64,000 nucleotides of DNA, taken from IMG/VR virus record IMGVR_UViG_3300006104_000014, positions 1 through 64,000 of that record. One strand, given 5' to 3'. This DNA comes from a virus. Position 1 is the stretch's first letter. Every line of letters starts with the position of its first letter. The position numbers and the translations under genes are program-made. The notes below the pieces were generated by a model, which was given only the letters and a program-made list of their open reading frames with translations, was not told where the DNA came from and ran no database searches. Below, piece after piece: positions 15,238 to 63,766 of the stretch.

Positions 15238-16103
15238 TACATACCACCCATATTTACAGCAGCATACATAAAGTGAGGACGTGCTGGGTTGATAAACATT
15301 CTTGGAATAAGACCACCAGCAACCAAAAGACTTCTCTTAGAACCAACCATGTATGCACGCTTCATCTGACGGAGCTGTTTGTCAGCAATTTCTTTCTCTA
15401 TGTTATAGAGATCCATCCAGCGATTATAGTAATCTCTTCTATTCATCCAGGCAGCATTCATACCTTCTGGAGTAGGTTGCTCAATATAGTTTCTAGCAAT
15501 ATGCTTAATGAAGTGAGCATAGGTTTGAGTAGCTAATACACCCCACCAGGTAGAAGGAAACGGAACCATTGCATTAGAACCCATATCATAAGCTGGACGG
15601 AATACGGGCTGAAACTCATAGTTAATATAGTCTAAAGCTTCTGTTGACATAAGGAATGCAACATCTTCGTACATATTAAAACCAGATTGACTAAGCTCCT
15701 GCAAGTATGGACCACCAGAAGAGGAGTCAAAACTTTTATCTAATCTATGTACAATTCCAGCAACTAATTGCTTTTCATCTGCTGTTAACATTTGCCAATA
15801 AGGCATTGCTTCTGTAATAGTAAAGGAGTCTGAGTAAAACCTTGCATTCCCACTAGTAGTATAGGACCAATTGGCTTTATAGTTACCTAATATAGTTGTC
15901 TCTGTAGAGCTGAGACTATAGGTATAAGTTCCTGTACTTTCACGAGTAGCTGCTGTCCCACTTGGAACCAGTACGACGTTATTATCAGTATTAATAACTT
16001 CTAGGGTCACCGAATTGTCATCAGCATCTGTAAGTGCACCTTGAACATAGATCATAAGCCCAATGGGCTCCACGGAATATTGTGGAATGGGTCTTACCCT
16101 CAT
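15237..16103 (-). CDS. Head-to-tail adaptor (neck) protein
   Basis: Ig-like N-terminus plus helical C-terminus with RRDYYNRW; synteny. Confidence 0.6.
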   Translation of the reverse strand: MRVRPIPQYSVEPIGLMIYVQGALTDADDNSVTLEVINTDNNVVLVPSGTAATRESTGTYTYSLSSTETTILGNYKANWSYTTSGNARFYSDSFTITEAMPYWQMLTADEKQLVAGIVHRLDKSFDSSSGGPYLQELSQSGFNMYEDVAFLMSTEALDYINYEFQPVFRPAYDMGSNAMVPFPSTWWGVLATQTYAHFIKHIARNYIEQPTPEGMNAAWMNRRDYYNRWMDLYNIEKEIADKQLRQMKRAYMVGSKRSLLVAGGLIPRMFINPARPHFMYAAVNMGGM

Positions 16104-17968
16104 TAGCTTAATCCAATAACAGAAATAGTACTTCCATATACTTGTAAGTTTGTACCAGAGTTGTTTGCAGCTAATACAAGTAACGTATTACTATTTGTAT
16201 TAGCAAAAGATGCTATAAAGTTAACAGTTGGCGATAAGTAACTACCGAGTTGTATAGTAAATACTTCTTTACGGTCAATAAAGGCAGATCCAGAAGTCCC
16301 ATAACCAAGCCAAGGATTGATGGCTGCAGCTCCACTATTATTACCCATATAAGCACTTATAGAAATGAGATACTTAGTAAAACCACTAACTGTAGTAGAT
16401 GCACAAACAGTTGGACTATAACTTGGAGTTGGAACAGTAGTAGTAAAGTTTACTCCAGAGGCACTTCCTGTAGCATTATTTGACCAGCCATTAACTTGGG
16501 GACTAGCCCATACTACACTTGTACCACTAGTTGTAAGTACCTGTCCATCTGAACCAGCTGTTACAGCTGCTGATGGACTAATTGGGGAAGCTAACGTAGT
16601 AGCACTTGGGACCGTTCCACCAACTTTACTACCTGAAATTGTAGCATTAGCAAGATAACCCGTAACTGTTACAGCTGGTACTATGACATTACTAGGCAAG
16701 GTCCCAGGATTAATTTGGGTTGGGACAATTTGTCCAGTTAGAGCTAAGGAGGTATTAGCACTTGCAACTATACTCAATACCTGGGAACCAGAAATAGTTA
16801 CTGGAGAATAACCAGTAACTTGGCTACCAGAAATAGTTCCAGTTAATGCCAAAGAAGTATTAGCACTTACAGATGTAGTAGCATTTGCAACTGTACCCGT
16901 TACCTGAGCACCAGGAATATATACACCACTTTGGAAGGTTCCAGGTTGTACACTGCTAGCTACTACGTTAGTTGTTACTATTCCAGTAACTTGGGATCCA
17001 CTAATAGTTGCATTTGCAAGGTAACCATAAACGTTAGTACCACTGATAGTAGCATTAGCTATATTTCCTGTTACAGTTACAGCATTTACTAATACATTAC
17101 TTGGAAGTGTACCAGGATTAATCTGAGTAGTGTTAATATTACCAGATAATGCTGATGCTGTATTAGCACTTGCAACTGCTGTACTAACTTGACTACCCAA
17201 AATAGTAGCGGTAGAAGTCAATCCACTAGCTAAGGCTACTGGGCTTTTAACTTGGCTTCCACTAATAGTACTTGACGATAAGTATCCAGAAACTTGGGCA
17301 GCAGCTAATGTTCCAGTTAAATTAGTGGCATTAGTGGCATTGGTAGCGTTAGTAGCATTAGTAGCATTAGCTACAACACCAGATACTCTACTACCAGAAA
17401 TAGTAGCATTAGATAAGGGTCCATAAACAGCTGACCCAGAAATAGTAGCATTGGCTGTAAGGTCACCATAAACAGCTGCACCACTAATGGTTATCCCGGA
17501 TGGTAACGGACCAGCATTAATCTCTGATGTATCTACAGTAAGATTAGACCATTGGCCACTTGTAGTCGAAGTAGAAGTAAAAAACTGGCCAGAAACTGTT
17601 GGAGCTGGAAAGTCACCATTGTTAATTTGATTAACAAAGCCAAAATCTGAAGCTAATGCACCATGGGACCAAGTAGTTCCACTAGCCCAACCTGAAGCAG
17701 TAAACCCAGATGTACCTTCTTGGCCTCTAATTACTGTTGCTGTTGTAGCATTAGCTGTATAGCTAGTAACATAAACAATTTCTGAAACATTACCACTAGC
17801 TGTTGTACTTTGGTTTGGGTTAATAACAAGTGGCAAATAATTAGTACCAGTAGTAACTGTAATATTACCTAAACCTGACCCAGTAAAATGGATAGTAGTA
17901 CTATTTGCCAATAGCCCACCTGTACCCAAAGTACCAGTTAAAAAGTTAGCTCGTAAACGCTGAACCAA
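16103..17968 (-). CDS. Fibre-like virion protein with ATISGSxV and ATN repeats
   Basis: Many ATISG/SQV repeats, ATNATNATNATNATN, N-terminal VIRGQEGT module. Confidence 0.65.
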   Translation of the reverse strand: MVQRLRANFLTGTLGTGGLLANSTTIHFTGSGLGNITVTTGTNYLPLVINPNQSTTASGNVSEIVYVTSYTANATTATVIRGQEGTSGFTASGWASGTTWSHGALASDFGFVNQINNGDFPAPTVSGQFFTSTSTTSGQWSNLTVDTSEINAGPLPSGITISGAAVYGDLTANATISGSAVYGPLSNATISGSRVSGVVANATNATNATNATNATNLTGTLAAAQVSGYLSSSTISGSQVKSPVALASGLTSTATILGSQVSTAVASANTASALSGNINTTQINPGTLPSNVLVNAVTVTGNIANATISGTNVYGYLANATISGSQVTGIVTTNVVASSVQPGTFQSGVYIPGAQVTGTVANATTSVSANTSLALTGTISGSQVTGYSPVTISGSQVLSIVASANTSLALTGQIVPTQINPGTLPSNVIVPAVTVTGYLANATISGSKVGGTVPSATTLASPISPSAAVTAGSDGQVLTTSGTSVVWASPQVNGWSNNATGSASGVNFTTTVPTPSYSPTVCASTTVSGFTKYLISISAYMGNNSGAAAINPWLGYGTSGSAFIDRKEVFTIQLGSYLSPTVNFIASFANTNSNTLLVLAANNSGTNLQVYGSTISVIGLS

Positions 17969-36488: not shown

Positions 36489-36560
36489 CTGAGGGGGAAG
36501 GATTCGAACCCTCGACATTCGGGACCAAAACCCGACGTTCTACCACTGAACTACCCCTCA
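36489..36560 (-). tRNA. tRNA-Gln(UUG)
   Basis: TGAGGGG/CCCCTCA acceptor, TCGGG-TTTTGGT-CCCGA anticodon arm, TTCGAAT T-loop; CCA not encoded. Confidence 0.9.
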
Positions 36561-36948: not shown

Positions 36949-37020
36949 AGCCCCCGACAGGAATTGAACCTGTATCCGCTGATTACAAAACAGCCGTAAT
37001 ATCCATTATACTACAGAGGC
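36949..37020 (-). tRNA. tRNA-Thr(UGU)
   Basis: GCCTCTG/CGGGGGC acceptor, anticodon loop TTTGTAA, ACAGG-TTCAATT-CCTGT T-arm. Confidence 0.85.
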
Positions 37021-55692: not shown

Positions 55693-56019
55693 CTAACCCT
55701 CGTACTCGGCCTCGGCCTCGTCATCCATCTCGGGGAGAGGACCGAACTCGCAGCTGTCGAACAGCAACGTCGCGTTCGTCTTGGTGGCCCCCACGGTCTC
55801 GGCCTTCCAGCGGCCGGACTTCTCACCCTGGGTAACGATCACCACGATAACCTCTCCCTCCACCTCGTAGGCACCGAGGACCACACCGTGCCAGCTCTGA
55901 GCCTTCGGGTTGTCGGGGTTCCACGTCACCTCCTGGTACTGACCGAAGTCCTCCAGGGTGTAGGTGGCCTTGTTGGCCTTGCGGTTACTGAAACTGAAAC
56001 TGCCGGCGTTGCTAGTCAT
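55693..56019 (-). CDS. SH3-like protein with acidic tail (true start MTSNAG at 56019)
   Basis: AGGAGG RBS; VTW...WHGVV similar to 60341-60679. Confidence 0.65.
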   Translation of the reverse strand: MTSNAGSFSFSNRKANKATYTLEDFGQYQEVTWNPDNPKAQSWHGVVLGAYEVEGEVIVVIVTQGEKSGRWKAETVGATKTNATLLFDSCEFGPLPEMDDEAEAEYEG

Positions 56020-56104
56020 GTTTCCTCCTAAGGAACATGGTCTCAACCCGGGATAACGGCTACCCCGGGGTACTACTTGGTACTTCCTATCCTTAGGTCT
56101 ATTT

Positions 56105-56165
56105 CCCCCAAAGGATATATTATAATAAATCCCCGTAAGTAGGGTAATATTTTTAAATATTACCA
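56105..56165 (-). promoter_or_regulatory. Early promoter repeat copy 1 with inverted-repeat operator
   Basis: TTACCC-N17-TATAAT-ATATCCTTTGGGG; GGTAATATTT-TT-AAATATTACC palindrome; diverged copy at 56241-56297. Confidence 0.6.
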
Positions 56166-56809
56166 TCTCCTACCAGGACTCCCCGGGATTTCCGGGAATG
56201 CAATGGGACCAATTGGCCTTTAATTACTTAGGCCTATTTGCCCCATTTGGTATATTATTATAAATTACCGTAAGTAGGGTAAAATTTATAAATATTAGCT
56301 ACTTCTACCATCCTGCAAGTGTTATAGCTTTCTGGAGAAGTGTTGGTGCTATATAGCTCCTAAAGCGTGTTAGACACGTCTGTCACTATAAGGTAGTCAC
56401 CATACTATATGTCCCGTCAGCACCTATAGTAGTAGGAGTGTACTATAATTAACGTCTCCGTCTACATATGGCAGGCACACGTGTACACATGCAGTTCTAC
56501 TAGATAAACACTGCTGTCCTATAGCTGTTGAGCTGCAGACACATCCATCCTACCTAGCCTACTAGTAGTCGTATACTCTTTAACTACTTTTTCTGTAGAC
56601 ACCTTAGATTAACATCCCAAACACACCTTACTTTAACACGTATAGTATGGGATGTTGGAGATAGAAATAGTAGTAAGTATGATAGTATAACGTGGATACG
56701 ACGTAATACTATAGGTTATCTACACACCTATGCCCTATCCACTACTACCATACCTACTACTATTCTATTTTAACGACTCCGTAGGATCACTCTTTCTTTC
56801 GCTACGCTC

Positions 56810-57100
56810 CTACGAAATGCATCCTACCAACACTCCGAGCCCAAAGACTAGACCAGCAAAGATAGCCAACACCGCCGTTCCTATTGGCGATACGAAGATG
56901 TCCAAATCATCAACGAGTTCGTCGTAGTCTTGGTTGTTTAGTTCAGGCATTTTCTCCACAATCTTCTCGAATTCCGTGTCGTAATAGCTTTGCATGACGA
57001 GATCGTACTCATCAGCATCTTGCTTCCATTCTTCATCTTGCTCTTCTTTACCGAGGTCTTCATGGTGAACCCCTTCAAAGATATCATCCCAATCCATCAC
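56810..57100 (-). CDS. Acidic protein with C-terminal TM helix
   Basis: GGAGG RBS; hydrophobic C-terminus. Confidence 0.6.
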   Translation of the reverse strand: MMDWDDIFEGVHHEDLGKEEQDEEWKQDADEYDLVMQSYYDTEFEKIVEKMPELNNQDYDELVDDLDIFVSPIGTAVLAIFAGLVFGLGVLVGCIS

Positions 57101-57372
57101 TCCTCCTCTTCTTCTTCTTCAGCAGGGAACATCTTCTCCCAGCATGCAGGGCAGGTACCGGAGATCAACATCTCACGGTCATCAGCACTCAACTCCGGAA
57201 AAGCCTCCTGGATTGCCATCTCCTTGTTTTGCCAACGGAGGAATTTAACTCCATCAACACGGATACCAGGGTTGTCCTTCTGGCACATCAAGCACCTGGT
57301 TTCGATGTACATCTGCCCTTCTTCCAGCTGAATCTCTTCACCACTTCTGGCGAAAAAGGTCGTTGCCATCAT
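57097..57372 (-). CDS. Zn-binding hypothetical protein (paralog of 62897-63139)
   Basis: CLMC...IQEAFPELSADDREMLISGTCPACW; GGAGG RBS before ATG at 57372. Confidence 0.65.
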   Translation of the reverse strand: MMATTFFARSGEEIQLEEGQMYIETRCLMCQKDNPGIRVDGVKFLRWQNKEMAIQEAFPELSADDREMLISGTCPACWEKMFPAEEEEEEE

Positions 57373-57381
57373 TTCCTCCAC

Positions 57382-57441
57382 TTAGCCTGTCTCATCAGTA
57401 CCAGTAGGCTAATTCCGGTAGAGGCCTCACGGCCTTTCGAC
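57382..57441 (-). ncRNA. Type II hammerhead ribozyme HH1
   Basis: GUC GAAA GGCC GUGA GGCC UC^ UACCGG AAUUAGCCUA CUGGUA CUGAUGA GAC AGGCUAA; cleavage 57421/57420. Confidence 0.9.
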
Positions 57442-57845
57442 TACCGCAGATCGTTAGCGGCATCTTCTGGGAACTTCTGCTCGTATGCCCTGGCAATGAC
57501 TCCGTCACTGCTCAGCTTCATCATGTCGAACACCTCAATCCAGAGTCCTGAGATACTCTTGGAGATCCGACGGTAAGAAGCAGACTGTGTCATGTACTTC
57601 TCCTTCTTCTCCTTCCTGTCTTCGGACTGTTCCTCCTTCTCTTCAGACTCGGCGTACTCAATGAACCGGTTGCTGTGGGCAAGCAATGCTGACAAGATCC
57701 GGTCCCACTGTTCGTAGGACAACTCGATGGAAACCGTCAACGGTTCTTGCATCCTTTCTTTCTGTGCCCTGTAAGTCTCGATACGAGTATCGAAGTCACC
57801 GTCGATCTTGTCCACCAACTCCTGGGTTGTCTCTTCCGCTTCCAT
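57441..57845 (-). CDS. Helical hypothetical protein
   Basis: 134 aa between HH2 and HH1. Confidence 0.65.
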   Translation of the reverse strand: MEAEETTQELVDKIDGDFDTRIETYRAQKERMQEPLTVSIELSYEQWDRILSALLAHSNRFIEYAESEEKEEQSEDRKEKKEKYMTQSASYRRISKSISGLWIEVFDMMKLSSDGVIARAYEQKFPEDAANDLR

Positions 57846-57857
57846 ATTTCCCCCTAG

Positions 57858-57916
57858 TAGTCTGTCTCATCAGGTGTGGTAGACTAATTCCACACTACGC
57901 CTCACGGCGTTTCGAC
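57858..57916 (-). ncRNA. Type II hammerhead ribozyme HH2
   Basis: GUC GAAA CGCC GUGA GGCG UA^ GUGUGG AAUUAGUCUA CCACAC CUGAUGA GAC AGACUA; cleavage 57896/57895. Confidence 0.9.
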
Positions 57917-57925
57917 CGTACCTTT

Positions 57926-58264
57926 TTAAGCGTACTCGCGGTTTTCACCGATGTACCGTACGTACTTCTTGTATGTACCATTAGGTTGACGTCGGATTGT
58001 AGTCTCATAAGGCAACTTGTCTACCTCGTAACCGTTTTGCTTGTTGAACTTGGTCATGGGCACATGCATAAGCGTTGCCAAAATAGTAGTCGTTGAACGA
58101 TAAGTGTTGTGCTCACTCCAAAGGAACCACACACCTGGGTTGTCCTTTAGCTGCTTCTCCCGGATTATGGTCCTTATCGAAAGGTTCCTGCTTCCGGGTA
58201 GAGGGTCAACGATGGCTACTGGCTCTTCTTGTTGCATCTCAAACTTACTATACACCCTGTACAT
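57926..58264 (-). CDS. Hypothetical protein (NPGVW...YVRYIG family)
   Basis: AAGGAG RBS; between HH3 and HH2. Confidence 0.65.
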   Translation of the reverse strand: MYRVYSKFEMQQEEPVAIVDPLPGSRNLSIRTIIREKQLKDNPGVWFLWSEHNTYRSTTTILATLMHVPMTKFNKQNGYEVDKLPYETTIRRQPNGTYKKYVRYIGENREYA

Positions 58265-58282
58265 GTTGAGCTCCTTACTATG

Positions 58283-58340
58283 GGCCTGTCTCCTCAGTGC
58301 AGTTAGGCCAAATCCTGCAGACGCCTTACGGCGTTTCGAC
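58283..58340 (-). ncRNA. Type II hammerhead ribozyme HH3
   Basis: GUC GAAA CGCC GUAA GGCG UC^ UGCAG GAUUUGGCCUAA CUGCA CUGAGGA GAC AGGCC; cleavage 58320/58319. Confidence 0.9.
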
Positions 58341-58693
58341 TAGTGGATACCGTAGTAATCGAAGAGTTCTTCGATGGGATCCATCTCACGTCGGAGTATG
58401 TCATTTGCAACTCTGGAAGCCAATTCGAAGGTGTCGTAGTAGGCGTTGTGGTAAATACCACCCATCTTACTCTTAATCTCCATCTCCAGCTTGTATGGGC
58501 CTGAGTCACCACCAAGTGTGGAGATCATCACATCAAACGAATTGGGCCAGCGGGATGAGTCAAAATTCTCATCAGAGTGCAACACCAAACCTGCATCGTT
58601 GACAATGCGGTAATTGTGGATACCGTATCCGTCAAGATCGATTACACTCGTCAACTTCCACTTCACACCATCTACTTCGTAATCCGTCTTCAT
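58340..58693 (-). CDS. Hypothetical protein (start MKTDYE at 58693)
   Basis: ATGA overlap with the upstream small ORF. Confidence 0.6.
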   Translation of the reverse strand: MKTDYEVDGVKWKLTSVIDLDGYGIHNYRIVNDAGLVLHSDENFDSSRWPNSFDVMISTLGGDSGPYKLEMEIKSKMGGIYHNAYYDTFELASRVANDILRREMDPIEELFDYYGIH

Positions 58694-58866
58694 CGCATTG
58701 CATCCTTCCAAACAATGTTTTGGGCGTAGGTAACACTCTGTCTACCATCGATGTGGCCAACAACTACTTTGCAACGGCCACCTTGAGTAGCAAAACTCTC
58801 AACAATGGCAATCTGTCCTTTGACCGTACAAACACGGCCAATATCGGACACCTTCAGCTGATTCAT
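58690..58866 (-). CDS. Small beta-barrel-like protein (58 aa; not in the ORF track)
   Basis: GGAGG RBS directly after HH4; MNQLKVSDIGRVCTVKG... Confidence 0.6.
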   Translation of the reverse strand: MNQLKVSDIGRVCTVKGQIAIVESFATQGGRCKVVVGHIDGRQSVTYAQNIVWKDAMR

Positions 58867-58878
58867 TGTTCCTCCATT

Positions 58879-58937
58879 TGGTCTGCCTCATCAGCACCGG
58901 TGGACCAGTTCCGGTGGACGCCTCACGGCGTTTCGGC
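58879..58937 (-). ncRNA. Type II hammerhead ribozyme HH4
   Basis: GCC GAAA CGCC GUGA GGCG UC^ CACCGG AACUGGUCCA CCGGUG CUGAUGA GGC AGACCA; cleavage 58917/58916. Confidence 0.9.
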
Positions 58938-58948
58938 ATTACTACCGA

Positions 58949-59554
58949 TTACTTCTTGGCCTTGGCCAGCTTCGTGTTCCAGTCCAGCATGTCAGGACGG
59001 ATTGGCTCCAAACGTGCCTGAACTCTCATCTGTCCAACCTCGCAGAGCCGAGTTCCAACGGACACATACAATCCGTTCTTGACGGCCTGCTTACGGAGGT
59101 AACACGCAAAGGCGTCACGCTTGTGGTAAGGAACATCCACGATGTGGACTTCACCGTTCAACAGCTTATCGATGTCAAACAAACGTGACCACAAGACGTA
59201 TCGGCTGCCCTTGTTGAGGCTACCGGATCGCTTCTTGTCCTTATTGGACTTCCTGGTCTTGACACTCTTCGTGTCAGGTCCTGGGTCTTCCTGCTTCATG
59301 GGGACAAGGGGCTTAGACTCTGACACCTTTTTAACACTGGTGTCATAAAAGACCTTGTTACCGGCCTTCATCGTCTGGTCCATTAAAGCACTGCAAAGAA
59401 CCTCGTTGGACGAGTGTTCCAGGATACGACTCAGGAAGATATCGATTGCCTGATCGACAATCTCTTCCTTGGTCGTAGGGGTAGGGTTTATGTAAACCAA
59501 CAGGCACTCAATAAGCTGCAGCTTCTGTTGGGACACGGGGGACAGCTCTTGCAT
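58949..59554 (-). CDS. Hypothetical basic protein (possible DNA binding)
   Basis: GGGAG RBS; between HH5 and HH4. Confidence 0.6.
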   Translation of the reverse strand: MQELSPVSQQKLQLIECLLVYINPTPTTKEEIVDQAIDIFLSRILEHSSNEVLCSALMDQTMKAGNKVFYDTSVKKVSESKPLVPMKQEDPGPDTKSVKTRKSNKDKKRSGSLNKGSRYVLWSRLFDIDKLLNGEVHIVDVPYHKRDAFACYLRKQAVKNGLYVSVGTRLCEVGQMRVQARLEPIRPDMLDWNTKLAKAKK

Positions 59555-59583
59555 GTCTTTCTCCCATTTCTCACTGATAACAA

Positions 59584-59645
59584 CGATCTGCCATCATCAG
59601 GCCTAAGGTGATCAATCCTTAGACGACGCCTCACGGCGTTTCGGC
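59584..59645 (-). ncRNA. Type II hammerhead ribozyme HH5 (extra U after CUGAUGA)
   Basis: GCC GAAA CGCC GUGA GGCG UC^ GUCUAAGG AUUGAUCA CCUUAGGC CUGAUGA U GGC AGAUCG; cleavage 59625/59624. Confidence 0.85.
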
Positions 59646-59659
59646 ATTACTACCGATTA

Positions 59660-60103
59660 CTACAGGTACACCATCCAATCAAAGGAGGACCGGTCCGAAA
59701 CTCGGATGGTCTTGTCCGTTGAAGCCTGCAACAACCGGATCTGGTTGTCAATCTCTGAAAAGTTCGGCTCCTGAGGCTCTTGAGGCTTCGTGTACCAGTC
59801 ATTAGTCAAAAACGCTGGGTCCAAGCCGGACAAGTCAACCCTTGGGGCCACCGGCTCCCAACTGTAGCCTTGGATGTGGAATCCAATCTTTCCATCCTTA
59901 CTGGTGTAAAACCCACCACGGTTTGCAAATTCCACTTCATTGGCCTTGATCCAGGCCTTTACGGCAACTTCCACTGCCTTGTTCCAGGTCTTCAGACGTG
60001 TAGGGTAAGCCTTGACTTCCTCCACGTAACGAGCCATACGGTCCACTTTCCACTGCTCGAGAGCATCGATCAGGTATTGCTTCTCATACTTGTAGCTTGC
60101 CAT
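59660..60103 (-). CDS. Hypothetical protein (start MASYKY at 60103)
   Basis: GGAGG RBS; between HH6 and HH5. Confidence 0.65.
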   Translation of the reverse strand: MASYKYEKQYLIDALEQWKVDRMARYVEEVKAYPTRLKTWNKAVEVAVKAWIKANEVEFANRGGFYTSKDGKIGFHIQGYSWEPVAPRVDLSGLDPAFLTNDWYTKPQEPQEPNFSEIDNQIRLLQASTDKTIRVSDRSSFDWMVYL

Positions 60104-60133
60104 CAGGCATTCCTCCAAAGGAACACTGAATCA

Positions 60134-60194
60134 ACGGTTGTCTCATCAGGCCTGGGGTACCGCACCCCAGACGACATCCATAGGATGTTTCGAC
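60134..60194 (-). ncRNA. Type II hammerhead ribozyme HH6
   Basis: GUC GAAA CAUCC UAU GGAUG UC^ GUCUGGGG UGCGGUA CCCCAGGC CUGAUGA GAC AACCGU; cleavage 60173/60172. Confidence 0.9.
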
Positions 60195-60232
60195 CTTACT
60201 AACACTACCTACTATATCCTTAGGTACATTTC

Positions 60233-60286
60233 CCCCAAAGGATATATTATAATAAATTCCCGAATATTGCAAATTTATAATAAATA
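60233..60286 (-). promoter_or_regulatory. Early promoter repeat copy 2
   Basis: TTGCAA-N17-TAATAT with AT-rich upstream; 54 bp identical to 63173-63226. Confidence 0.7.
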
Positions 60287-60301
60287 GTAGGTGCAGGGGA
60301 G

Positions 60302-60329
60302 TGGGCAGTTTACGGTCGTACCCAGGACC
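60302..60329 (-). ncRNA. Small H-type pseudoknot, copy A
   Basis: GGUC CUGGGUAC GACC GUAAAC UGCCCA, 11 nt after a stop codon. Confidence 0.55.
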
Positions 60330-60340
60330 TAACAGTTGGC

Positions 60341-60679
60341 CTACAGATCTTGCAACTCTTCGTCTTCTGCAAAGATGTTACCATCAAACACATCGGTCTC
60401 ATCGACGTCATCGATTCCAAAGACCTCATCGGCCATCTCTTCAACCTCTTCAAGGAGGTCGGATGAGAAGGTGGTCACCACAGGAAGCACCTTAGCAACA
60501 TTGTCACCAGTGTGGACCTCCTCGGAAACTCGACCACTCTTGTCCTCCCAAAGTACTCGGACGAAGTAGTCGCCCTCGTGATCTTCGGTTGGCACCTCAA
60601 TGACCACACCGTTCCATTCCTTGGAACGTGGGGTCTTCTTCCGCCAAGTGACCTTTTGGCCCTCTGAGAAGTTCATCAT
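60341..60679 (-). CDS. SH3-like protein with acidic tail
   Basis: AAGGAG RBS after HH7; VTW...WNGVVI...VRVLW. Confidence 0.7.
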   Translation of the reverse strand: MMNFSEGQKVTWRKKTPRSKEWNGVVIEVPTEDHEGDYFVRVLWEDKSGRVSEEVHTGDNVAKVLPVVTTFSSDLLEEVEEMADEVFGIDDVDETDVFDGNIFAEDEELQDL

Positions 60680-60694
60680 TTCTATCTCCTTACT

Positions 60695-60753
60695 ATTAGC
60701 CTGTCATCTTCAGCACCGGGTGGCTAATCCCGATGGACCTATTAGGTTTCGAC
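60695..60753 (-). ncRNA. Type II hammerhead ribozyme HH7
   Basis: GUC GAAA CCU AAU AGG UC^ CAUCGGG AUUAGCCA CCCGGUG CUGAAGA U GAC AGGCUAAU; cleavage 60736/60735. Confidence 0.85.
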
Positions 60754-60858
60754 TAACTACACTAATTAATTGACGGTAGCAACATTAAGTAGACTACATC
60801 TCAATGTTCCGTACCTACTACCTTACTTACTATACCCTTTATTTTAACGGGCTAAGAA

Positions 60859-60886
60859 TGGGCCTTTTATTGTCATACCCAGGACA
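60859..60886 (-). ncRNA. Small H-type pseudoknot, copy B
   Basis: UGUC CUGGGUAU GACA AUAAAAG GCCCA, 12 nt after a stop codon; covaries with copy A. Confidence 0.55.
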
Positions 60887-62192: not shown

Positions 62193-62204
62193 TATTGCTC
62201 CTTA

Positions 62205-62402
62205 CTAGTAGTTTGTCTTTTGACAATCTGGACAGGCCAACCACAACTCATCGGCTTGGGTATCTAGGTGGGCCCTCCATTGGTCATCATAACCATCTGG
62301 GTCAGCTACCTCCTCCTTCCACTTTTCGTCTCTAACCTTATAGCAAAAATCACACTGTTGCATTTGTTTACTTTCTGTTGTATGGGTTGTCACTGACATC
62401 AA
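62205..62402 (-). CDS. Small Zn-finger protein
   Basis: CDFC...CPDC. Confidence 0.5.
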   Translation of the reverse strand: MMSVTTHTTESKQMQQCDFCYKVRDEKWKEEVADPDGYDDQWRAHLDTQADELWLACPDCQKTNY

Positions 62403-62896: not shown

Positions 62897-63139
62897 TTAC
62901 TCACTTTCTAGCATTTCGTCGTAACAACTACCACAAACAAACGTCCCAATCAACGCCCTTTCATCTAAGCGTAATTCAGGAAATGCTTTCTCTAAGGACA
63001 ACTCACGGTTAAGCCATTTCATTATCCTTTTCTCTTTTACGATCAAGAGGTAAATAATCTCACATTCTACACACTCAACCTCAACTCCAATCTTACCATG
63101 GCCAATACCATCTAGGTAGACCAAATCATAACTGTCCAA
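62897..63139 (-). CDS. Zn-binding protein (paralog of 57097)
   Basis: AAGGAGG RBS; CVEC...LEKAFPELRLDERALI...CGSC. Confidence 0.6.
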   Translation of the reverse strand: MDSYDLVYLDGIGHGKIGVEVECVECEIIYLLIVKEKRIMKWLNRELSLEKAFPELRLDERALIGTFVCGSCYDEMLESE

Positions 63140-63172
63140 ACAGGTCTACCTCCTTATCCTTAGTACATATTA

Positions 63173-63226
63173 CCCCAAAGGATATATTATAATAAATTCC
63201 CGAATATTGCAAATTTATAATAAATA
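63173..63226 (-). promoter_or_regulatory. Early promoter repeat copy 3
   Basis: Identical to 60233-60286. Confidence 0.7.
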
Positions 63227-63321
63227 AGAGTTACTACTGTTTCTCTGTCTATGGGTCCCTATTATACCCCATCCAGTGTATGAGCATAAGAGACCTAATT
63301 GTAATAAGGTCTCACACAATA

Positions 63322-63684: not shown

Positions 63685-63766
63685 TGCCCGGAGCGGGACT
63701 CGAACCCGCACGACTTTCGTCACTGGCACCTAAAGCCAGCGTGTCTGCCTATTCCACCATCCGGGC
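63685..63766 (-). tRNA. tRNA-Leu(UAG)
   Basis: GCCCGGA/TCCGGGC acceptor, CTGGC-TTTAGGT-GCCAG anticodon arm, long variable arm, TTCGAGT T-loop. Confidence 0.9.

Follow-up and report, generated by a model that had tools for sequence, protein, structure and literature searches.

Type II hammerhead ribozymes between the small genes of a freshwater phage and their probable role in cutting early transcripts into linear messages

We describe an array of type II hammerhead ribozymes that lies between small genes of an uncultivated freshwater phage. The window, that is, the whole stretch of DNA that was analyzed, comprises the first 64,000 nt of the 77,359-nt IMG/VR record IMGVR_UViG_3300006104_000014, which comes from freshwater metagenomes, has an estimated completeness of 52%, and encodes a tail sheath protein. 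An earlier inspection of the letters and their open reading frames (ORFs), hereafter the sequence-only reading, had noticed six hammerheads between small genes, HH6 to HH1, with outer limits at 57421 and 60172. We confirmed this observation: the six hammerheads are present, and our outermost cuts (57421 and 60173) match those limits. The array is larger than was seen then. A motif parse retrieved 13 complete type II hammerheads in the record, all on the minus strand, which also carries all genes of the array region. They span 14 kb, seven of them are inside the window, and most neighbors are separated by one to a few ORFs.

Cuts are given as the last base before cleavage, in plus-strand coordinates and in the numbering of the sequence-only reading. 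For scoring, we used the Rfam model of the type II hammerhead (RF02276, gathering score of 37 bits) and a covariance model built from the local copies, which match it by construction. HH6 (60124–60198) is cut after 60173 and scored 44.9 bits with Rfam (match 60132–60195) and 57 bits with the local model. HH5 (59574–59649, cut after 59625) scored 30.5 bits (match 59582–59646) and 60.7 bits, and HH4 (58869–58941, cut after 58917) 46.7 bits (match 58877–58938) and 83.1 bits. HH3 (58272–58344, cut after 58320) and HH2 (57848–57920, cut after 57896) scored 78.7 and 84.4 bits with the local model, and HH1 (57373–57445, cut after 57421) scored 31.2 bits with Rfam (match 57381–57442) and 83 bits with the local model. 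The seventh copy of the window, HH7, lies upstream of HH6 (60687–60757, cut after 60736; Rfam 35.1 bits, match 60695–60754; local model 67.6 bits). The six hammerheads past the window occupy 65627–71306 of the record and are cut after 65675, 66349, 67287, 67821, 71000, and 71280.

Between HH6 and HH1, the ORF and motif parse bore out the five units of the sequence-only reading, each with a ribosome binding site (RBS) and one ORF, apart from one unit with two. The unit from HH6 to HH5 holds an ORF of 147 aa (59660–60103), and that from HH5 to HH4 one of 201 aa (58949–59554). From HH4 to HH3 there are two, of 58 aa (58690–58866) and 117 aa (58340–58693), and the start of the second overlaps the stop of the first (ATGA). 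The units from HH3 to HH2 and from HH2 to HH1 hold ORFs of 112 aa (57926–58264) and 134 aa (57441–57845). All are on the minus strand, and a GGAG-type RBS precedes each of them.

None of these genes belongs to a known family: searches against Pfam and PHROGs gave no match, and the 201-aa protein had no homologue besides itself among 5.8 billion proteins. The unit ORFs are mutually unrelated, with only a few distant paralogue pairs. Next to the five units, the 91-aa ORF directly downstream of HH1 (57097–57372, minus strand) is the sole array gene with a family match (phrog_20898, unknown function), and the unit from HH7 to HH6 holds an ORF of 112 aa (60341–60679, minus strand). Both have a distant paralogue in the region (62897–63139 and 55693–56166, respectively), and these pairs include genes with and without a ribozyme ahead.

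At the structural level, the Rfam gathering score was passed by HH4 and HH6, while HH1 and HH5 were below it and HH2 and HH3 were unreported. With the local model, HH1–HH6 scored 57–84 bits (E 4e-13 to 1.6e-20), a result to be read knowing that the copies match their own model by construction. A search of the record with this model recovered exactly the same 13 copies (57–84 bits) and nothing further convincing. The core motifs CUGANGA and GAAA and a non-G base at H17 are invariant in 13/13 copies, H17 being C in ten, U in two, and A in one (HH2). The helices follow the type II order, with stem II open and stems III and I closed by loops. No other ribozyme classes were found in the region.

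Covariation is strong. Over the 13 copies, stems II, III, and I together with a pseudoknot between loop I and the tail had 93.5% of their cells paired, compared to only 29–41% in a control where the partners were slid by one to three columns. Counting the pseudoknot, 13 of the 20 pairs changed on both sides, a number that none of 500 shuffles reached. The pseudoknot helix alone was 82% paired, with three pairs changed on both sides, and loop I paired better with its own tail than with the tails of other copies (P=0.00025). Perreault et al. 2011 (PMC3088659) reported the same architecture for hammerheads of type II. Judged by core, helices, and covariation, the 13 copies are genuine hammerheads, for which self-cleavage is predicted.

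One further site, at 62199–62228, was considered as a collapsed hammerhead remnant and not counted (local model 15.5 bits, E 0.067). The match is confined to the RBS, the tail, and the outer strands of stem II, and it may be a remnant or a chance likeness.

Each ribozyme fills the whole intergenic gap, from the stop codon of one gene to the RBS of the next. In the 5′ to 3′ direction, the 5′ strand of stem II contains the stop codon or directly follows it, and next are GAAA, the stem III hairpin, and the cut. Past the cut, a stem I hairpin with a loop that pairs with the tail beyond stem II leads to CUGANGA and the stem II 3′ strand, and the RBS begins a few bases past the tail. The start codon of the next ORF is 10–39 nt past CUGANGA in this array, and in other phage loci it is mostly 20–30 nt after it.

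In 8/13 copies, the upstream ORF ends with the very UAG that belongs to the conserved UAGUC-GAAA, in the stem II strand at -5 from G12. Two of these embedded stop codons are in the window, at 57441–57443 (HH1) and 58340–58342 (HH3), and six others are beyond it. An embedded UAG occurs at the same exact position in 129/204 copies of other IMG/VR phage loci, a figure inflated by the selection of those loci with a pattern containing TAGTC. Since the UAG is within the stem II strand, a terminating ribosome would sit on the ribozyme.

As for transcription, a promoter scan identified a sigma-70-like promoter on the minus strand at 60246–60273 (TTTGCA, 16 nt, TATAAT), about 40 nt upstream of HH6 and inside an 84-nt repeat element. 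On the minus strand from HH6 to HH1 we found no convincing terminator-like sites, only one weak match inside the 201-aa ORF. With a promoter before HH6 and no convincing terminator down to HH1, the six hammerheads are probably on one transcript, which the promoter at 60246–60273 probably starts. The 84-nt element is present four times (56092–56175, 56227–56310, 60219–60302, and 63159–63242), each copy with a minus-strand sigma-70-like promoter followed by a short inverted repeat. The scan picked up two of the four copies, and a hammerhead follows some of them and not others.

Taken as a whole, we propose that type II hammerheads punctuate an early accessory-gene region of this tailed freshwater phage, and that they probably cut long early transcripts into linear mRNAs, mostly single-gene. 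The long transcript would be split by self-cleavage while it is being made or shortly afterward, and one of the products (HH4 to HH3) would carry two genes. Every message would begin with a 5′-OH and a uniform, compact hairpin-pseudoknot leader beside its RBS, and would end about 20 nt past its stop codon in a hairpin with a 2′,3′-cyclic phosphate. A stem II of 3–4 bp would favor the release of the products over their religation. The expression and decay of each gene could then be uncoupled from those of its neighbors, in an insulator-like manner. HH6, directly behind the promoter, would only trim the leader, which suggests that, besides separating cistrons, the ribozymes matter for the uniform 5′ end that they leave. 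We infer that cleavage occurs in vivo and has an effect on message stability and translation.

Hammerhead arrays between phage genes have been known since 2011, and this array joins them. In the work of Perreault et al. 2011 (PMC3088659), three tandem arrangements of this type cleaved in vitro and one cleaved in vivo, and the authors proposed that single-gene mRNAs are produced in this way. The arrays in phages and prophages described there share with ours the type II fold with the loop I/tail pseudoknot, the location on one strand, the variable flanked genes, and the phage context. They differ in scale and source: our array, which comes from an uncultivated freshwater phage, has 13 copies within 14 kb, whereas the arrangements tested there had three ribozymes. 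As far as the text of that article goes, figures aside, it contains neither the embedded stop codon nor the ribozyme-bounded swaps that we describe below. The role of many self-cleaving ribozymes of bacteria and phages was still an open question for Weinberg et al. 2019.

Several observations weigh against transcript cutting as the function of the array. Four of the six sites from HH1 to HH6 are under the Rfam gathering threshold or unreported. Many genes of the region have no ribozyme, and paralogues occur with and without one, so a ribozyme is not needed for expression in general. Regarding RNA, no public runs matched 57300–60800; the only matches were four freshwater DNA metagenomes. Besides, a 5′-OH end may either stabilize or destabilize an mRNA, depending on the RNases of the host.

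This last point leads to a different role for the same cuts, in which they switch genes off. The cleaved ends would be attacked by host RNases, or cleavage would be conditional, and the decay of early messages would be timed in this way. The 5′-OH product of the glmS ribozyme in Bacillus offers a parallel. The array is in an early-type region behind strong repeated promoters, and regulated cleavage was suggested for some phage hammerheads (Perreault et al. 2011, PMC3088659). However, the cores are canonical and show no trace of an insertion for ligand binding, and both cleavage products end in stable hairpins. We consider such a switch unlikely.

The processing into linear messages that we favor recalls synthetic insulators such as RiboJ (mentioned in PMC7536230). 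RiboJ is an engineered hammerhead derived from a satellite-RNA ribozyme. Placed just upstream of the RBS, it removes variable upstream RNA and leaves a hairpin leader, as the phage copies would; with RiboJ, expression becomes context-independent. RiboJ is engineered, whereas for the natural phage copies an insulating effect would be an extrapolation. With 13 copies in 14 kb, each tied to a stop codon and an RBS, and one of them behind a promoter, the array is a clear natural example, and it would be suited to testing whether the insulation of expression is a function of phage hammerheads.

For the ends of the units, the sequence-only reading had suggested that they may form circular mRNAs. The end strands of a cleaved unit would rebuild a hybrid hammerhead, and either the reverse ribozyme reaction or an RtcB-type ligase would close a circle that could be translated. 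The topology permits it: a unit would begin, at a 5′-OH, with the 3′ half of one ribozyme and finish, at a cyclic phosphate, with the 5′ half of the next. Moreover, the stem II combinations are as listed in that reading, with GAC+GCC mismatched (HH6/HH5) and the remainder compatible (GGC+GCC, GGC+GUC with a wobble, and GAC+GUC twice). The GCC/GGC stem II belongs to HH4 and HH5, and HH5 has an additional U following CUGAUGA.

Compatibility, however, equals what chance would give. From HH1 to HH6, 4/5 neighbors are compatible against a mean of 3.67 over random orders (P=0.6), and across the 13 copies 11/12 are compatible against 10.3 expected (P=0.29). A control in reverse order, which has no possible function, also gave 11/12. 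Stem II compatibility is uninformative because 11 of the 13 ribozymes share the same GUC/GAC helix. In addition, a hybrid stem II would be only 3 bp closing a loop of 424–708 nt, and its predicted pair probabilities in the five units were 0, 4e-5, 9e-4, 2e-3, and 3e-3. It cannot be extended because the bases past stem II are taken up by the pseudoknot. The unit from HH7 to HH6, outside the five units for which circles were proposed, reached a predicted probability of 0.39.

A search for rtcB in the rest of the genome had been recommended as a check. Neither RtcB (PF01139) nor an RNA ligase (PF09414) was found in the 77,359-nt record, which is weak evidence since the record holds about half of the genome and the host is unidentified. 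For comparable arrays, Perreault et al. 2011 (PMC3088659) reasoned that cleavage and ligation could give spliced or circular products and detected neither (data not shown).

Retrozymes and viroid-like RNAs (PMC4918200, PMC7761336) are the closest known circles. There, too, two hammerheads delimit a unit with 5′-OH and cyclic phosphate ends and complementary halves. However, their ribozymes are of type III or type I, and a single monomer, non-coding and highly structured, is repeated in tandem. The remainder of the molecule lengthens the open helix, and circularization is carried out by a host tRNA ligase. The phage array has type II ribozymes with an open helix of 3–4 bp, and no circle is known from it. 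Instead of a repeated monomer, its units hold unrelated coding sequences that would be loaded with ribosomes, and instead of a stable structure that holds the ends, there is only the improbable 3-bp helix. On a circle, the stop codon and the RBS would be one ribozyme apart, so that terminating ribosomes could re-initiate. The idea is striking but not new, and the stem II compatibility offered for it carries no information; we regard circular messages as very improbable.

The sequence-only reading had further suggested that the repeats let genes be gained or lost by DNA recombination. Transcript cutting is compatible with this, and the repeated conserved cores may have, as a second use or a by-product, a role as DNA recombination sites for the gain, loss, and replacement of genes. 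The ribozymes would then be the junctions of swappable gene cassettes, joined by homologous or microhomology recombination between cores. We hold this view tentatively, as somewhat short of an even chance. The suggestion stood directly for other phage lineages, where we found such exchanges; in this phage, it is backed by a direct repeat and by mosaic ribozyme halves, with no close relative in which a swap could be seen.

The direct repeat is the identical run shared by HH4 and HH5, which had been put at about 35 nt and is 37 nt long with 100% identity. Its upstream copy (59625–59661, minus strand) contains stop codons and the whole 5′ half of HH5, its downstream copy (58917–58953, minus strand) contains the stop codon and the whole 5′ half of HH4, and both end exactly at the cut. 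The repeat flanks the 201-aa gene, and 16 of its nucleotides are outside the ribozyme. It is a true duplication.

As for the mosaic halves, among the 13 ribozymes similarity in the 5′ half was uncorrelated with similarity in the 3′ half (Mantel r = -0.05). HH2, for example, has a stem III common with HH4 and HH5 and a stem I and tail 93% like those of HH13, whose own stem III is nearest to HH11. These combinations fit recombination inside the ribozymes. As evidence they are weak, given that unrelated phages also have short GC-rich GNRA hairpins, which may be convergent.

Contigs of the four metagenomes over 54501–73500 were colinear and identical, and their only breaks were at the 37-nt and promoter repeats, as expected from short-word assembly. 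In these contigs, which hide rare variants, we found no variant with a deletion between the two copies of the 37-nt repeat. No joint was located inside 57.4–60.2 kb, and the listed joints have sides of 21–31 nt and probably derive from the hammerheads of other phages. This colinearity counts against the cassette view.

Relatives of the phage were scarce. INPHARED contained none, with only a 63-nt hammerhead match to Dulem virus 39, and the 201-aa protein and a 434-aa protein had no match in IMG/VR or the JGI metagenomes. The only relative found was a 105-kb genome (G001), retrieved via an amidase search, whose structural genes have approximately 70–78% nucleotide identity. No hammerhead was found in it (E up to 0.01), and g72668 is the only array gene with a homologue there. 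At the syntenic position, G001 lacks a 19.7-kb block (53735 to 73462) that in our phage contains the 13 ribozymes along with the ORFan genes and the promoter repeats; in G001, the genes flanking this position (the amidase and the homologue of the 73.4-kb gene) are about 650 nt apart. The ribozyme-rich block is therefore a lineage-specific accessory region, in agreement with cassettes.

The amidase-family gene itself (PF01425, 52287–53735) is 98.8% nucleotide-identical to G001 15660–17109, whereas other shared genes are 66–78% identical. This difference suggests a recent transfer of the amidase gene between distinct phages.

Beyond this phage, hammerheads of this kind are abundant: at least 119 IMG/VR contigs matched a strict hammerhead pattern, and the model gave 188 hits in 100 loci, with arrays of up to 8–10 copies spaced by about 300 nt. 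Arrays of 8–10 hammerheads of the same family, about 250–900 nt apart, are found for example in two IMG/VR contigs (L037:3613-6715 and L013:8155-11333).

Pairs of related loci displayed exchanges bounded by ribozymes. L025 and L093 differ by exactly one ribozyme-to-ribozyme unit. The single ribozyme of L093 consists of the upstream flank of the first L025 copy and the body of the second, with the crossover in the AG(Y)CGAAAC core. L038 and L077 are 93–98% alike in their shared parts, and the unit between two conserved ribozymes is replaced by unrelated sequence; besides, a second ribozyme is absent together with a gene, and a replacement also affects a third unit.

Among related loci, 57 of 474 homology breakpoints were in ribozymes, compared to 10.9 expected by their length share; a breakpoint was present in 60% of ribozyme junctions against 34% of other gene junctions; and the density per kb was 6.7 for junctions with a ribozyme, compared to 3.5 for the other gene junctions and 1.0 within ORFs, all of them crude counts, with related loci counted repeatedly, heuristic gene calls, and loci chosen for carrying ribozymes. 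A fair reading is a roughly twofold breakpoint excess over ordinary gene boundaries, together with a few unambiguous ribozyme-to-ribozyme events. This enrichment is modest, a ribozyme was touched in only 14 of the 117 indel or replacement events that distinguish related loci, and the ribozymes may simply sit in regions that are already plastic. We infer that recombination at the ribozymes may also operate in the phage studied here.

The PeSL cassettes of T4-type phages (Arbiol et al. 2010, PMC2839356) provide a precedent. In both systems, a short conserved intergenic expression signal is repeated among ORFan genes in a plastic region, and recombination between PeSL copies gives insertions, deletions, and replacements, as we consider here; DNA mini-circles were also shown for PeSLs. 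PeSLs differ in that they combine a promoter with a terminator stem-loop and act on transcription, whereas here the signal is a self-cleaving RNA and the promoters are separate repeats. The array could also be used to test whether conserved cores double as recombination junctions, for which the swaps in other lineages give some footing.

The same spread of copies could reflect a selfish or neutral repeat, in which a module of about 75 nt (stop codon, ribozyme, and RBS) moves between gene junctions with no benefit to the phage. The many copies, their mosaic halves, their presence ahead of some paralogues but not others, and the zero copies in the 105-kb relative would agree with it. On the other hand, compensatory changes have maintained the pairing of stems and pseudoknot in 13/13 copies, all with intact cores, and the exact coupling to the stop codon and the RBS is kept over hundreds of copies in unrelated phages. 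Compensatory changes and kept placement point to selection on cleavage and on placement, and we find a selfish repeat quite unlikely.

Finally, three features accompany the array. The array genes have 46–51% GC with GC3 up to 0.70, in a record of 42% GC. An element of about 30 nt is present twice, 80% alike, at 60299–60328 and 60856–60885, shortly past the last stop codon of a gene run. Three tRNA genes are on the minus strand, at 36489–36560, 36949–37020, and 63685–63766, one of them within the early region.

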